This document shows positions 8,622-58,472 of a stretch of DNA of 64,000 bases, piece by piece. Source of the DNA: an uncultured Verrucomicrobiae bacterium (GTDB lineage: Bacteria > Verrucomicrobiota > Verrucomicrobiia > Chthoniobacterales > Chthoniobacteraceae); NCBI GenBank assembly GCA_963769025.1, contig CAVYKI010000004.1, forward strand, positions 1 through 64,000. Direction: 5' to 3'. The position numbers and the translations under genes are program-made. Below the pieces are notes generated by a model. It did no database searches. It was not told where the DNA came from and worked only from the letters and a program-made list of their open reading frames with translations. Each line of letters opens with the position of its first letter. Position 1 is the stretch's first letter.

Positions 8622-8894
8622 TCACTCGCGAATCTCGAAGCCGAGCAGGCCGGGGGGCGGCGGGACGACGGCGACGTCCACCTTTTTGATGTGGCTCTTG
8701 AGCTCACTTTCCTCGATGGCCTCGATGAACGCGTCCACTTCCTCCGTCTCGCCGTTCGCCTGCATTTCGACGCGGCCGTCGGGCAGGTTCTTCACCCAGC
8801 CGGTGACGTCGTAGCCGCGGGCGAGATTTTTCACCGACCAGCGGAAGCCGACGCCCTGCACGCGGCCCTCGAAGAACACGTGGCGTCCCGTCAT
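8622..8894 (-). CDS. acyP: Acylphosphatase
   Basis: MTGRHVFFEGRVQGVGFR...GWVKNLPDGRVE signature; start overlaps the upstream stop (ATGA at 8891-8894). Confidence 0.93.
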   Translation of the reverse strand: MTGRHVFFEGRVQGVGFRWSVKNLARGYDVTGWVKNLPDGRVEMQANGETEEVDAFIEAIEESELKSHIKKVDVAVVPPPPGLLGFEIRE

Positions 8895-9895
8895 GGCGCG
8901 TCGGGCAGGGAGCGGAGGTAATCGGCGGCGACCTCGGGCCAGATGCCGTTCACGTGGCAGCCGGTGGCCGCGGGCAGCGCGTCCGGCGGATGCAGCACGG
9001 GCGTGATGGTGATGTGCCAGCGGAAATCTTCGTCGAGCGACGCCCAGTCCTCCGCGGATGCGACGCGCGAAGGGGCGGTGGTGAGCGTGAGGTGGTAGGG
9101 CGGATGGTTGATCGCGCGGTTGAGCCTTCGCAGCGCGAGGCCGAGGGACTGCGCGAGGCTGTCGGACTCCCCGTGCGTGATACGGTGGAAATCCGCGCCG
9201 TTCCGCTTTGGCCAGATGGCCAGTTCGAAGGGCGCTCGCGCCGCGTACGGGCAGAAGGTGAAAAAGTCCCCATTTTCGTGCACCACGCGGCTCGCGTTGC
9301 GGCGCTCGTGCTCGATGATGTCGGCAAACAGCGAGCGCTTCCTGAGCGCGAAGTGGTCCTCCGCGTGGCGGATTTTCCGGCGCAGGGAAGGCGGCACGAT
9401 CGCCATGGCCACGATCTGGCTGAGGCTGTGCGCCACGGTCTGCCCGGCGGCACTGCCGACGCTTTTCAACACGGTGAATGAACGCAGCCGGTGATCCCGC
9501 ATGAGGTCCTCTATCCGCACGGCCCACGCGCGGATGACCTGTGCGATGGCGCCGGCGGGAAGCTCGTCGAGCGTGCGCGAACCGGGATCCTCGATGACGA
9601 TCTCGTTCGCGCCGACCGCGTCGAGGTGCTCGTAGAGGCCGTCCGCCTGCGGCTGGCTGTCGCCTTCCACGCGGAGGACCGGCAGCCGGTTTGGCACCAC
9701 GCGCACCTGCCAGCCGGATTCGCCGGCGGAATGATGCAGCGCATGCGCCGCGAACGTTTCCAACCCCGCCCGGAACGGGCTCTCCGCGAGGACATCGTTG
9801 CGTACCGAACGCGTGGACGGCGGGAACGCGCGGCTTTCGTTAAAGATGGTCCAGTCCCGCGTGAGTGGGTCTAGGCGGAGTTCTGTTTTGTCCAT
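8891..9895 (-). CDS. GalT/ADP-glucose phosphorylase-like HIT-superfamily protein with degenerate active site
   Basis: ELRLDPLTRDW, WQVRVVPNRLPVL, FCPYAARAPFE, WHITITP, GCHVNGIWPEVAADYLR match the GalT family; the HxHxQ motif reads HSLSQ. Confidence 0.85.
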   Translation of the reverse strand: MDKTELRLDPLTRDWTIFNESRAFPPSTRSVRNDVLAESPFRAGLETFAAHALHHSAGESGWQVRVVPNRLPVLRVEGDSQPQADGLYEHLDAVGANEIVIEDPGSRTLDELPAGAIAQVIRAWAVRIEDLMRDHRLRSFTVLKSVGSAAGQTVAHSLSQIVAMAIVPPSLRRKIRHAEDHFALRKRSLFADIIEHERRNASRVVHENGDFFTFCPYAARAPFELAIWPKRNGADFHRITHGESDSLAQSLGLALRRLNRAINHPPYHLTLTTAPSRVASAEDWASLDEDFRWHITITPVLHPPDALPAATGCHVNGIWPEVAADYLRSLPDAP

Positions 9896-10103
9896 GGGCG
9901 GTGCGGGAGGCGACTGCTGTCTGTGGAAGCACACGGTGCGCCGGAGGGGAAGCACAGAGTCGCGGTGCTTCGTGACTGTTGGACGGAGCCGGTGGCGGAT
10001 TTTGCTGTGTGGTCAAAAACGGACAGCTGGGCGCATGGGAAACCGATGCGATTTTGGTGCGAAAAAGAAAAGTTCCCCTCTGTACACGCCCCGCAACCGC
10101 ACG

Positions 10104-10120
10104 TTGGCACAACGGGTGCT
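10104..10120 (+). promoter_or_regulatory. Putative sigma54 promoter with no conventional downstream gene
   Basis: TTGGCACAACGGGTGCT, GG-N10-GC, preceded by an A-rich tract at about 10060-10072. Confidence 0.6.
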
Positions 10121-10130
10121 AAAGGACCGT

Positions 10131-10256
10131 CTGTCCATGCAAGTGGACATCCGAAATCAATCACAGGGAGGCAGCCCGGCCAGTTACAGGGGTTGCTGCA
10201 ACGGTCCGGGGGGAACCGTTGCGGCAGGGTCTGGCCGGGTTGCCGAACTGTGATTC
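10131..10256 (+). ncRNA. Candidate structured small RNA (short 5' hairpin + long interrupted stem-loop)
   Basis: Hairpin 10132-10149; helices 10159-66/10248-55, 10170-83/10231-44 and 10193-205/10215-27 with G-U pairs on the + strand; starts at the position expected for a sigma54 TSS. Confidence 0.45.
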
Positions 10257-10357
10257 GCGAGCGGAGCGACGGGCCTTGAAAGTGGAAGGGAAATGCCCGC
10301 CGGGCGCGACTTTCCCGCGCCCCGCCGTTCAAGCACCGGCACCCGGAGCCGAACGCT

Positions 10358-10624
10358 TCACTCCAGTTCCTTCTCCAACCGTTCGCTGAGCCACTGTTTG
10401 ATCATGCTCTGGTAGTTCAGATAGCGGGAGCGGGCGATGCGCTTCAGGCGCGCGAGCAGGCGCGGGTCAAAGCGGAGCGTGATGGTCGTGCTTTCGCGGT
10501 TGTCGGCGCGGAGGAGCGCCTGGTTCATCAGGCGGACGTCGATGCGCGTGTCCATCCAGAACGCGGCCTCCTCTTCCTCGGACTCGAAGCGGGGGACCTG
10601 GCTCCATGCGGCGATCGATTTCAT
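10358..10624 (-). CDS. BrnA/CopG-family antitoxin (ribbon-helix-helix)
   Basis: PRFESEEEEAAFW N-terminus and TITLRFDPRLLARLKRIARSRYLNYQSMIKQWL RHH C-terminus; directly follows the BrnT-like gene. Confidence 0.85.
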   Translation of the reverse strand: MKSIAAWSQVPRFESEEEEAAFWMDTRIDVRLMNQALLRADNRESTTITLRFDPRLLARLKRIARSRYLNYQSMIKQWLSERLEKELE

Positions 10625-10627
10625 GTG

Positions 10628-10909
10628 TCAGATCAGTTCGGCGGTCTTGCGCTCGAAGAAGGATTGCTCCTCGGGCGTCATCTCTCGGGCGAGGATGCAG
10701 CGGATCTTTTTTCCGTCGCTCCAGAAGAGGGTGAAGATGGGGCGGCCCTCGACGCTCTTGCCCAGGTTGAAGTAGCGGGCGTGGCCCGTGCCGGCGATTT
10801 CCACGTCGGGCATGAGGCGCAGGCTGAAGGGATCCTCAAAGGACTCCTCGATTTCGCGCGGCGTGAGCTTCCTCAGGTCGAAAGGGGAATCCAGCCAGTC
10901 AAATTCCAT
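10628..10909 (-). CDS. BrnT (DUF497)-family toxin-like protein
   Basis: MEFDW start, EIEESFEDP, RYFNLGKS, KIRCILAREMTPEE; 93 aa; toxin-first order typical of BrnTA. Confidence 0.8.
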   Translation of the reverse strand: MEFDWLDSPFDLRKLTPREIEESFEDPFSLRLMPDVEIAGTGHARYFNLGKSVEGRPIFTLFWSDGKKIRCILAREMTPEEQSFFERKTAELI

Positions 10910-34474: not shown

Positions 34475-34551
34475 GCAGCCGTAGCTCAACTGGATAGAGC
34501 GTCGGTCTCCGAAGCCGAAGGTTGTGGGTTCGACCCCCGCCGGCTGCACCA
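34475..34551 (+). tRNA. tRNA-Arg (anticodon CCG)
   Basis: Cloverleaf: acceptor GCAGCCG/CGGCTGC, D arm GCTC/GAGC, anticodon stem TCGGT/GCCGA with loop CTCCGAA, T loop TTCGACC, encoded CCA. Confidence 0.97.
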
Positions 34552-55400: not shown

Positions 55401-56932
55401 GGCTCACGGCTACCGACACCGTGGATGTCACCGTCGATCAGACAGCCACCAGCATCGCCGTCTCGCCGTCCAGTGCGACCGTTCCCTATGGTGGCACGCA
55501 GGCGTTCGGTGCCAGTGTGCTCGATCAGTTCACCGATCCGCTGGCTGTGCAGCCGGGCGTCACGTGGAGTACCAGCGGTGGAGGGAGCATCAGCGCGGGA
55601 GGGGTCTTCACGGCGGGAACAGTCGGCGGCCCCTACACCATCACCGCCACGAGCGGCAGCATCAGCGGCACCGCCAGCGCCACCGTTACCAAAGCCGGGG
55701 CGGCCGTGACGCTCGGGAATCTCGCGCAGGCCTACACGGGGACGGCGAGGACCGCGACGGCCACGACCACGCCCGGCGGTCTTGCGGTGAACATCACGTA
55801 TGACGGCTCCGCGACCGCGCCGGTGAATGCCGGCAGCTACGCAGTGGTCGCGACGGTGAACGATGCGAACTACAGCGGCAGCGCGAGCGGGACGCTGGTC
55901 GTTTCGAAAGCGGCTGCCAGCGTGACGCTCGGCAGTCTCGCGCAGACCTACACGGGGACGGTGAGGGCGGCGACTGCGACGACCACGCCGAGCGGCCTTG
56001 CGGTGAACATCACCTACGACGGCTCCGCGACGGCACCGGTGAATGCCGGCAGCTACGCGGTGGTCGCGACGGTGAACGATGCGAACTACAGCGGCAGCGC
56101 GAGCGGGACGCTCGTAGTCTCGGAAGCCATCGCGACTGTGACGCTCAACGATCTGGCGCAGACCTACACGGGAACAGCGAGAACGGCGACGGCGACGACC
56201 ACACCGGGCGGTCTTGCGGTGAACATCACCTACGACGGCTCCGCGACAGCGCCGGTGAATGCGGGGAGCTACGCCGTGGTCGCGACGGTGAACGATGCGA
56301 ACTACAATGGCAGTGCGAGCGGGACACTGGTGGTGTCGAAAGCCACGGCGACGGTGACGCTCGGCAGCCTCACCCAGACGTATTCCGGCACAGCGAGGGC
56401 GGCGACGGCGACGACGTCGCCCGGTGGGCTGGGCGTGAGCTTCACTTACAACGGATCAGCGACGGTACCGGTGAACCACGGGAGCTATGCAGTTGCTGCG
56501 ACCGTGAACGACGCGAACTACACCGGCTTTGCCAGCGGGACTCTGAACATCACCGGCCAGCCGCTGGCGGACTGGAGCGCCCTGCACTTTACTCCTGGGG
56601 AAATCGCGGCGGGCCTCGCCGACGACATCGCCGATCCCGATGACGACCGGCTCAGCAATCTCGCGGAGTACACGCTCGGGACCGATCCGCGCGTGCCCAA
56701 CCCGCATCCCGGCTTCACGCTGGATGGCGACGGCCTCACGCTGACATTCACGCGGCCGAAAGCGTTGCCCGACGTCGGCTATTTCGCCGAGTGCGCCTCC
56801 GACTTTGGAACGTGGGATCCGCTCTCGCTCGAACTCCTCGCCGATGGTCCCGTGCAAACCCTCCGCGCGCGCGACCCGCTGACCTCCGGCGATCCCGCGA
56901 GCCGCTACATCCGGCTACGCTTCGAGCGATAG
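52427..56932 (+). CDS. Large S8 (subtilisin-like) serine peptidase with Ig/PKD-like and MBG-like repeats
   Basis: Triad motifs VGVWDGG, DHATHVTGT, SGTSMATP; SAGND; DGRIKPDLVANG; true start may be slightly downstream. Confidence 0.92.
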   Translation: MASNGACGRGRSRDIPDRLTPLRTILFRLGILLGLVRGAVAQETLADWLNAPDARLADPVHRAQVVEKARAFSGQRKAAAHAKAAQLGLPLRRVLPNGRVSELMDFKGERPLYFITHNVSAAISSGANLLQAAPYSMNGAGLTVGVWDGGGACSTHQEFGTRVTILDGGALVDHATHVTGTIAAAGTVASAKGMAPAARVDSYEWTSDKSEMTARGASYPGEAGKIYLSNHSYGFISGWNYTGLSSPRWNWYGSGTTVASIEPDFGKYDTNARDTDSLAAGLPYYLIFRSAGNDRQDNPVAGEGVSLTTGTTSAVAYDPAAHPAGDGVYRSGYDTIGYDAVAKNVVTVGSVGDAVSGGLRQVANAYMSSYSCWGPTDDGRIKPDLVANGESLYSAFSGANNAYGTYSGTSMATPSVTGSAALLVNWWNQLFPGHVMRASTLKALLIHTADDRGTPGPDYQFGWGLMNVKGAADLAQAYKNSPGTRRIIEDQITTTATARSYSFTWDGSSPIRATLCWTDPAGSATTTSDLRTARLVNNLDLKINGPTGTLHQPYVMPFVGTWTTANFSAAATTGVNNTDNVEQVHVSAPPTAGVYTAVVTYSGALTNSAQNFSLILSGGVASATAPAPTASAISPIVGTTGTMVLTLTGAGFMPGANVKLTKSGQVDVPATGQEIIGNSAKVRVNVNGMAAGLWNVVVTNPDGLGVTLPNAFTIVGPIWQEDFESGAAGWTHSASPTYTIDNWALSTAKSHSATQSYFASGPASKNIEDLYSPVFAIPAGSSNLRLTFYHDYDLQSTRDGGVMEFSINGGTWFDVISPSSGAAFSTGGYNATLANTNPSSSRNPLAGRPAWTGVKTGFSQVALDLTDAAKYAGKNLQVRWRLATNASTASNGWYIDDIALAGATSSNLSPSIVTSAAATPSPVPGTSTVLTVEASDDGGEPGLTYTWSATGGTFQRPVTFSENGTNAAKTTTATFAIAGDYTCTVTVRDAAGLTATDTVDVTVDQTATSIAVSPSSATVPYGGTQAFGASVLDQFTDPLAVQPGVTWSTSGGGSISAGGVFTAGTVGGPYTITATSGSISGTASATVTKAGAAVTLGNLAQAYTGTARTATATTTPGGLAVNITYDGSATAPVNAGSYAVVATVNDANYSGSASGTLVVSKAAASVTLGSLAQTYTGTVRAATATTTPSGLAVNITYDGSATAPVNAGSYAVVATVNDANYSGSASGTLVVSEAIATVTLNDLAQTYTGTARTATATTTPGGLAVNITYDGSATAPVNAGSYAVVATVNDANYNGSASGTLVVSKATATVTLGSLTQTYSGTARAATATTSPGGLGVSFTYNGSATVPVNHGSYAVAATVNDANYTGFASGTLNITGQPLADWSALHFTPGEIAAGLADDIADPDDDRLSNLAEYTLGTDPRVPNPHPGFTLDGDGLTLTFTRPKALPDVGYFAECASDFGTWDPLSLELLADGPVQTLRARDPLTSGDPASRYIRLRFER
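55691..56554 (+). repeat. Four tandem 216-bp (72-aa) MBG-like domain repeats inside the S8 gene
   Basis: Units start at 55691, 55907, 56123 and 56339; consensus KA.A.VTLG.LAQTYTGT.R.ATATTTP.GLAVNITYDGSATAPVNAGSYAVVATVNDANY.GSASGTLVVS. Confidence 0.92.
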
Positions 56933-58244: not shown

Positions 58245-58400
58245 TTCTTTGTCAGTGCTCAATGGCTCCGCGGGTGCGGAGCCAGCGGGGGACCCACTTC
58301 GTTTGCCACAGGGCGAACTCGGGGCGCACGGCGCTACACGCCGGGAGGACTTCATGCCTCCAGCCCGACAGCTAACCTCGTCAGCAGCCATGGAGAGGCA
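58245..58400 (+). ncRNA. ydaO/yuaA-type cyclic di-AMP riboswitch
   Basis: TGCTCAA, perfect hairpin TGGCTCCGC-GGGT-GCGGAGCCA, GCGGGGGACCCA, GGGGCG, and CCCGACAGCTAACCTCGTCAGCA in the order of the ydaO consensus; TTGACA at 58208-58213 upstream; precedes a KimA-like transporter. Confidence 0.88.
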
Positions 58401-58472
58401 AACGGACGGATCCTCATGCGTTTGGATAACTCTCGTGTTCCCGACCTCCCGGAACGCCCACGCATCCAAAAC

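Follow-up and report, generated by a model that had tools for sequence, protein, structure and literature searches.

The window analysed here is a 64,000-nt stretch of contig CAVYKI010000004.1 from an uncultured Verrucomicrobiae bacterium (order Chthoniobacterales, family Chthoniobacteraceae). One of its intergenic regions is flanked by two minus-strand genes, one GalT/HIT-like (8891-9896) and the other for a CopG/BrnA antitoxin (10358-10624), beyond which lies a BrnT-like gene; on the plus strand the region carries a sigma-54 (RpoN) promoter followed by a small hairpin and a long rod (Table 1). A preliminary description of the window had proposed that these elements form a novel, sigma-54-driven structured small RNA (sRNA) gene. 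Promoter, hairpin, rod and internal loop all lie where they had been placed, and covariation, promoter conservation and strand asymmetry among homologs bear the proposal out. The comparisons establish the structure, strand, promoter conservation, distribution and independence from neighbours of this gene, and we consider it likely overall that the locus is a stand-alone sigma-54 sRNA gene of the Chthoniobacterales that is probably nitrogen-regulated.

Table 1. Features of the sRNA locus, in window coordinates.
Feature	Position	Strand	Description
Upstream element, candidate enhancer (upstream activating sequence, UAS)	10004-10027	+	GCTGT-N14-ACAGC around TGGTCAAAAACGG, ~95 nt 5' of promoter
Promoter-proximal conserved element	10073-10082	+	TTCCCCTCTG, 32 nt 5' of promoter
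Sigma-54 (RpoN) -24/-12 promoter	10105-10120	+	TGGCACAACGGGTGCT; TGGCAC-N5-GTGCT
Predicted transcription start	10130-10132	+	expected from usual sigma-54 geometry, ~11-13 nt after the -12 GC
5' hairpin P0	10132-10149	+	7 bp, loop GCAA; from fold
Linker	10150-10158	+	A-rich, single-stranded; unpaired in minimum free energy (MFE) fold, A-rich in most type A homologs
Rod	10159-10255	+	97 nt; helices P1, P2, P3
Rod helix P1	10159-10166/10248-10255	+	AAUCACAG/CUGUGAUU
Rod helix P2	10170-10183/10231-10244	+	GGCAGCCCGGCCAG/CUGGCCGGGUUGCC; conserved GCAGCCCGG/CCGGGCUGC
Rod internal loop, asymmetric (9/3)	between P2 and P3	+	TTACAGGGG vs. GGT; conserved AGGG on 5' side, GGG on 3' side
Rod helix P3	10193-10207/10212-10227	+	from fold
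Apical element CC-GGGG-GGA	10206-10214	+	near-invariant G-run, likely functional site; invariant in genus

The plus strand folds with a free energy of -79.1 kcal/mol (z -7.4), a value that 0 of 200 shuffled sequences match, while the minus strand reaches -67.5 (z -7.0). Base pairing was examined in an alignment of 26 diverse members with 31 modelled pairs. Standard pairs fill 88.6% of the cells in this 26-sequence alignment vs. 24-45% when the 3' partner is slid by 1-3 columns, and compensatory change is seen in 25 of the 31 pairs; 0 of 500 shuffles reach the observed values. P2 has compensatory change in 11 of 13 pairs (98% of cells paired) and P3 in 11 of 12, while the P0 hairpin has it in 3 of 6 modelled pairs, with 97% of cells paired in 18 sequences. 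When folded singly, each of the 26 homologs arrives at the same architecture. Members fall into type A, which has the 5' hairpin, and type B, which is shorter and lacks it; P0 is therefore probably a stabilising 5' cap rather than part of the functional core.

Strand was assessed in 96 sense homologs, left from 102 covariance-model matches once six opposite-strand echoes had been removed. In 92 of the 96 the sense strand folds more stably (mean difference 9.5 kcal/mol), with 5.5 G-U pairs on the sense vs. 2.0 on the opposite strand. In the window itself the rod's three non-Watson-Crick pairs (G10174-U10240, U10193-G10227 and U10197-G10223) are all G-U on the plus strand, as the preliminary description had observed. 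The G-run is found in the context YYY|G5-8|A in 94 of the 96 homologs, and in 84 it lies within a hairpin loop of the MFE fold. A U-tract stands directly 3' of the rod in 63 of the 96, so the rod would serve as an intrinsic terminator in most relatives; none is present in the own genome or its genus.

The covariance model begins 3' of the promoter and does not include it, which makes the sequence upstream of each match an independent test. Using a strict pattern ([TCG]GGCA[CT]-N5-NTGC[TA]) and, as a control, the equivalent (mirrored) window on the opposite strand, we find a sigma-54 element at the 5' edge of 91 of 96 homologs vs. 0 of 96 control windows. Among matches outside the training alignment, 66 of 70 carry the strict element. 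Four of the five misses have an element in this position that deviates by one or two bases, and the fifth is the second copy of a tandem pair. The element in the window, TTGGCACAACGGGTGCT (10104-10120, plus strand), has its GG at 10106-7 and its GC at 10118-9, i.e., the two doublets are spaced as in the consensus TGGCAC-N5-TTGCW. No sigma-70-like promoter and no canonical U-tract terminator was found in 9850-10450. The own genome, which is GC-rich, holds 33 matches to the promoter pattern vs. ~37 expected from its composition; a match in this genome alone is not above chance, and its significance comes only from conservation. One rpoN gene (Sigma54_DBD) is encoded in the own genome, and rpoN occurs in 147 of 151 genomes of the order; being this widespread, it is consistent with sigma-54 dependence and non-discriminating. 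Elsewhere in the own genome, on the minus strand of contig C12, three sigma-54-pattern matches are evenly spaced ~620 nt apart (offsets 84639, 85255 and 85886 of the reverse-complemented contig), possibly marking tandem genes that each have their own promoter.

BLAST searches of 41 related genomes recovered six full-length relatives (79-83% identity), in which promoter, hairpin and rod are kept, and one 36-nt partial match. With a first covariance model, matches were obtained in 8 of 30 genus genomes and, at E ≤ 0.1, in 25 of the 151 genomes sampled from the order; five weak matches of this model (L045, L047, L048, L049 and L050), which look like coding sequence without a promoter, were dropped. 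The second model, built from the 26 diverse members with the promoter left out, detects the RNA in 82 of 151 Chthoniobacterales genomes (E ≤ 0.001), representing 12 of 16 families. It is universal in three families (8/8, 15/15 and 15/15 genomes), present in 5 of 15 genomes of the own family and found in no genome of four others. Most of these genomes are metagenome-assembled and related genomes are not independent; the genome searches score a limited number of prefiltered candidates, which leaves absences soft. In a phylum-wide sample of 151 genomes, matches were limited to the own genome, a second genome of the order and a doubtful match in another order (G260, 33.8 bits), which lacks both the sigma-54 element and P2 and was not counted as a member. 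An exact-pattern scan of 185,579 species genomes gave 15 loci, 14 of them in Verrucomicrobiota/Chthoniobacterales lineages and one labelled only 'uncultured bacterium'. As far as sampled, the family is confined to the order Chthoniobacterales.

Copy number is low. The own 5.3-Mb assembly contains one copy (self-match only), and relatives contain 1-3. In one family some genomes have 2-3 sibling copies (second copies L100-L104 and L106), and in one tandem pair (L105; G144:C326, 251-511), whose members are separated by 4 nt, only the leading copy is preceded by a promoter; in three further second copies the -24 element is degraded. These counts bear on the idea that the long, near-perfect inverted repeat belongs to a dispersed repeat (repetitive extragenic palindrome, REP, or miniature inverted-repeat transposable element, MITE) or to a divergent housekeeping RNA such as signal recognition particle (SRP) RNA or 6S RNA. 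Dispersal of the REP/MITE type is not seen in the 5.3 Mb. SRP RNA (RF00169) and 6S RNA (RF00013) share with the present RNA a rod-like fold in which an asymmetric internal loop and an apical loop are conserved. In favour of such an origin, the 6S model has no match anywhere in this genome, which is 83% complete. However, SRP RNA is encoded elsewhere (contig C10:21258-21352, 57.5 bits), neither model matches at the locus even at E ≤ 10, the rod, 97 nt with a 9/3 internal loop, reaches about half the 187 positions of the model for 6S (a rod of ~180 nt with a large central bubble), and size, promoter type and patchy distribution are wrong for either RNA. Rfam 15 gives no match at the locus at the gathering threshold; at E ≤ 10 the region 9850-10400 returns only three chance-level eukaryotic models (best 22.1 bits vs. 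a gathering score of 69). A repeat or housekeeping origin is thus extremely improbable, and the earlier view that the RNA is not a tRNA, SRP, 6S or riboswitch holds.

The flanks of 27 homologs were scanned against Pfam. The upstream neighbour is mostly divergent, being ligA at 8 loci, in some cases separated from the RNA gene by a VanZ gene, and, in the own genus, the GalT-like gene. Downstream genes are mostly convergent and encode glyoxalase (6 of 27 loci), CopG/BrnA (4), cyclophilin (2) or RNase HII (2). Because the flanking genes vary and mostly converge or diverge, the sRNA gene is a stand-alone unit, independent of its neighbours. In the own genome brnA is convergent and lies ~100 nt downstream of the RNA gene, and BrnA-type genes lie downstream at more loci by sequence than by Pfam, in several genera of two families. 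The convergence on the 3' end of brnA that had been pointed out earlier is therefore real and recurrent. The RNA might then be a cis element of the convergent brnTA operon, acting antisense to brnA or forming part of a bidirectional terminator region, which would fit the missing terminator after the rod in the own genome. Either role is nevertheless very unlikely: most homologs have a different downstream gene, promoter and fold are kept whatever the neighbour, the U-tract ends the RNA before the neighbour in the 63 homologs that have one, and it is the minus strand that folds worse in 92 of 96. As an observation in its own right, the convergent brnTA module (window 10358-10900, minus strand; also L021, L027, L030 and others) is unusually stable for a toxin-antitoxin locus, reflecting either an old insertion at an intergenic site or a functional link.

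The preliminary description also raised a dual-function RNA, since a 38-aa open reading frame (ORF; 10137-10253) overlaps the gene. This ORF exists, and an SD (Shine-Dalgarno)-like GGAGG lies inside the RNA, yet its ATG is replaced by GTG or GCG in congeners and indels of 1-2 nt in the internal loop shift the frame. The longest ORFs of 8 genus homologs differ in start, frame and peptide, a length of ~38 aa is the median for such stop-poor, G-rich sequence, and the peptide has no Pfam match. What is conserved is the base pairing and not the peptide, and a peptide-coding function is highly improbable.

Evidence on the regulation of the sRNA gene comes from the region upstream of its promoter. 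The element at 10004-10027 is conserved in the genus and recognisable in other families; the promoter-proximal element, conserved in 6 of 7 aligned genus sequences, might be an IHF-like or second activator site. In a 2.4-Mb carrier genome the sigma-54 pattern occurs 27 times vs. 5 for the reversed control, and one of these copies precedes the ammonium transporter gene (amt). The amt gene of the own genome likewise has a sigma-54 element, and two further motifs are shared by the two upstream regions. One is AAACGG(G)ACAG, at about -88 for the sRNA and -100 for amt; as AAACG{2,3}ACAG it has 10 copies genome-wide, two of which stand before these two promoters. The other is TTCCYCTS, at exactly -32 in both (the amt version is TTCCTCTG). 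The amt genes were located by Pfam family search; a single-protein search at E ≤ 1e-40 gave no matches. The own-genome amt (C3:758724-759898, minus strand) aligns in three pieces in different frames, an apparent frameshift or assembly error.

A position weight matrix (PWM; consensus gcTGgcCAAAAatcGcCA) was fitted to 91 sRNA upstream windows, with amt regions not used in the fit. It scores 19.3 bits at the upstream element of the own-genome sRNA. When applied to the upstream regions of amt sigma-54 promoters, it ranks 6 of 7 genomes within the best-scoring 5% of 3000 control windows (p = 0.008 to 0.049); these p-values are conservative because the control pool contains true sites. Among the 33 sigma-54-pattern matches of the own genome, five score above 10 bits: those of the sRNA, amt, two genes for NMT1-family substrate-binding proteins and one unknown gene. 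A first regular expression for the upstream element had given one further match, inside a divergent coding region upstream of an NMT1 gene; first taken as chance, it was later recovered by the PWM at 15.8 bits. A perfect palindrome, CTGTCCGAAACGGACAG, was judged unrelated; it lies just before a CheB/CheR-like ORF without a sigma-54 promoter.

The own genome encodes five intact sigma-54 activator genes (Sigma54_activat) and two that are apparently split. The latter (C2:31040-31541 and C3:677364-677865) each consist of two adjacent pieces and are apparently frameshifted or broken. Four small sRNA-positive genomes each have exactly two true activators, vs. one in three small sRNA-negative genomes. 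The extra activator forms a clade, EBP-a (branch support 98%), that is represented in 6 of 6 sRNA-positive and 0 of 5 sRNA-negative genomes compared; the tree is a quick one with a faulty row for G156 (branch length 10), whose ortholog was confirmed by an order-wide search. EBP-a is a receiver-AAA+-HTH_8 protein with its best NCBIfam match to ntrC (TIGR01818, 453 bits, below the cut-off of 558.6). In the own genome its gene (C3:200593-202017) is an orphan between purA/uppS and an aminotransferase gene, with no adjacent kinase or gln genes. Orthologs in the order sample score at least 564 bits (60% identity) vs. at most 360 bits (44%) for paralogs. By this measure EBP-a is present in 123 of 151 genomes, and the sRNA occurs in 81 of the 123 with EBP-a and in 1 of the 28 without, i.e., 81 of 82 sRNA carriers have the activator. 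Of the 28 genomes without EBP-a, 15 make up a whole family, 7 form one genus and two are 0.9 Mb in size; the other four are scattered, and three of these four are 84-89% complete. Furthermore, amt has a sigma-54 element in 7 of 7 EBP-a-positive genomes examined vs. 0 of 4 EBP-a-negative genomes with amt. The family that has neither the sRNA nor EBP-a carries a different activator gene upstream of rpoN, no more than ~2.5 kb away (G081 C1:1145878-1148903; G037 C1:573042-576097).

The upstream motif shared with amt, the co-occurrence with EBP-a and the sigma-54 element of amt in every EBP-a-positive genome examined together suggest that the sRNA belongs to an NtrC-like nitrogen regulon, which we regard as somewhat likely. 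To about the same degree we favour the orphan NtrC-like response regulator EBP-a as the protein that would activate the promoter through the 10004-10027 element. The link to a PEP-CTERM regulon suggested in the preliminary description finds nothing in its support; the shared motif and the activator profile point instead to the ammonium transporter and nitrogen regulon.

Several points weigh against the proposed nitrogen-regulated sRNA gene. The activator assignment rests on co-occurrence among related genomes, and since EBP-a-less genomes cluster in few lineages there are few independent losses, in effect three lineages in which both are gone, together with some scattered genomes that are incomplete. 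In G094, whose genome is 89% complete, the sRNA occurs without EBP-a, and 42 genomes have EBP-a with no detected sRNA. A universal second activator, EBP-b, is found in 11 of 11 genomes compared and is a possible alternative driver. The two motifs shared by sRNA and amt in the own genome were defined post hoc, the PWM comes from a greedy fit seeded with a motif picked by eye, and the amt promoter of G072 has no PWM match. The RNA is missing from 22 of 30 genomes of its own genus and so is dispensable or often lost. Finally, the start, end and expression of the transcript are all predicted from the DNA, and the 3' end is open, with no U-tract in the own genome, so that transcription may read through into antisense brnA.

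Some of these points favour a different account of the promoter, in which EBP-b or a lineage-specific activator drives it, the RNA is unrelated to nitrogen, and the likeness to amt reflects a general bending or IHF-like element. The ubiquity of EBP-b, the 42 genomes with the activator alone, the G072 promoter and the lack of kinase or gln genes beside EBP-a would all fit, and the PWM has an A-tract core that may mark a bend in the DNA. We consider this account unlikely: the loss of EBP-a coincides with loss of the sRNA and of the amt sigma-54 promoter in separate lineages, and the PWM exceeds 10 bits at only the five promoters named above.

Under the nitrogen-regulon reading, sigma-54 RNA polymerase would transcribe an sRNA of ~125-135 nt, from ~10131 to ~10256 on the plus strand, starting from the promoter at 10105-10120. 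The transcript would consist of the 5' hairpin, the A-rich linker and the long rod. An upstream element of the same kind appears to precede the sigma-54 promoter of amt and those of two genes for NMT1-family binding proteins, and scarcity of nitrogen would switch on the RNA and the ammonium transporter together. Among the 151 genomes of the order, Hfq was detected in one and CsrA in 31, and neither was found in the own genome; in the three families in which the sRNA is universal, CsrA occurs in 0/8, 1/15 and 0/15 genomes. Given that Hfq is this rare and CsrA nearly absent where the sRNA is universal, we infer that the sRNA acts without either protein.

Conservation is highest in the loop residues (AGGG, the G-run and GGG) and in helix P2. 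The exposed G-run loop, perhaps with the G-rich strands of the internal loop, may pair in trans with C/U-rich sites in target mRNAs, as loop-loop or loop-strand contacts; to this mechanism, of the kind proposed for NrsZ, we give somewhat less than even weight. It is not helped by the target search, in which complements of the apical loop (≤1 mismatch, 117 genomic sites) gave no convincing target; exact complements comprise only the gene itself and one site deep in an ORF, with none near a start codon. The conserved P2 and internal-loop G residues, moreover, look as much like a protein-binding platform as a pairing seed. A 13-nt string in the leader of one NMT1-family gene (L249, C3:466000-469700), GGCAGCCCGGCCA, lies just after a second, weaker sigma-54-like element and is identical to the P2 5' strand, hence complementary to the P2 3' strand. 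As pairing evidence this identity was rejected as too weak, the 12-mers of the string occurring ~10 times genome-wide; it may be chance, or a hint at a pairing role for the sequence-conserved P2.

The same sigma-54 sRNA could instead work by binding a protein, as a decoy or scaffold comparable to GlmY, CrcZ, 6S or Y RNA, with a partner that is neither Hfq nor CsrA. The failure of the target search agrees with this, as does the distribution of conserved sequence, which within the rigid rod is concentrated in P2 and in residues of the two loops (internal and apical) and leaves P3 free to vary, a pattern typical of ribonucleoprotein scaffolds. There is no conserved single-stranded stretch longer than ~10 nt, and sibling copies exist, as in decoy systems. 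No candidate protein has emerged, however, and nothing is conserved beside the gene; the two obvious partners are out, Hfq for its near-absence from the order and CsrA because most carriers lack it. Loop-exposed motifs also fit kissing-type pairing, of the kind described for NrsZ (PMC4253122). A scaffold mechanism thus appears less likely than loop-mediated pairing. In a more specific and more doubtful version, the rod would form the RNA component of a novel ribonucleoprotein switch in the verrucomicrobial nitrogen response, one that works without Hfq or CsrA. The G-run loop, G-rich internal loop and P2 would bind and titrate a partner with a signalling or RNA-binding role, or even part of the sigma-54 transcription machinery, in which case the RNA would be a feedback decoy; the logic would be analogous to that of GlmY, CrcZ or 6S.

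Among known systems, NrsZ of Pseudomonas aeruginosa is most likely what the present RNA works like, judged by analogy. NrsZ is described as a stand-alone sRNA of ~226 nt, induced by NtrB/C-RpoN under nitrogen limitation and processed, with three repeated stem-loop modules; its function is ascribed to a conserved motif, ACAGGCAG, exposed in a stem-loop, with a kissing-complex model for the target 5' untranslated region (PMC4253122). The present RNA differs in having one rod without repeats and a G5-8 apical run, in belonging to a different phylum and in that its nitrogen control is predicted. Homology is not detectable (no Rfam match at E ≤ 10, with NrsZ presumably represented among the Rfam models). 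The junction before P2 (window 10163-10175) reads ACAGGGAGGCAG here and ACAGGCAG in one homolog (L039). Strings like the NrsZ motif occur in some homologs and are not conserved across the family, so this likeness is probably a coincidence.

GlmY and GlmZ of Enterobacteriaceae are reported as sigma-54-dependent sRNA genes with upstream activator sites and as sibling copies of which one base-pairs and the other is a protein decoy (PMC3045617, PMC4152352). They thereby cover both mechanisms considered for the present RNA, while their fold is unrelated, their activator is GlrR, their target is glmS, and no RapZ-like partner is known for the RNA described here. The Qrr sRNAs of Vibrio are Hfq-dependent and have a linear conserved seed, in contrast to an RNA from an order nearly devoid of Hfq whose conserved residues sit in the loops of a rod. 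The likeness lies in the control of Qrr genes, where sigma-54 and a response-regulator activator are described as driving one to several sibling sRNAs (PMC10162802). GlnZ, presented as the sRNA arm of an NtrC nitrogen response, is cut from the glnA 3' untranslated region (PMC9731577), whereas the present RNA has its own promoter and no sequence relation to it. The RNA is therefore a new family that resembles NrsZ, GlmY/Z and Qrr in logic and is a member of none by sequence or structure.

The Chthoniobacterales are abundant soil bacteria that are mostly known from metagenome-assembled genomes. Our searches found no publication on an sRNA regulator in this order or on a sigma-54 sRNA in Verrucomicrobiota. 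The comparative support for the family is unusually clean, with covariation, a promoter as conserved as the RNA, sibling copies, and a regulator and signal that can be tested. The gene would give access to post-transcriptional nitrogen control in a phylum largely without Hfq. The family is a ready Rfam candidate, and its sigma-54 promoter is of reporter grade for use in these organisms. Should the rod with its G-run prove to bind protein, a new type of riboregulatory partner would be defined.

Elsewhere in the window, a c-di-AMP riboswitch (58246-58402, plus strand, 58.6 bits) and a tRNA (34475-34548, plus strand, 66.8 bits) are all that Rfam detects at the gathering threshold. Positions 55692-56639 hold four tandem copies of a 216-nt unit that are 60-85% identical to the reference copy and probably encode a repetitive protein domain.

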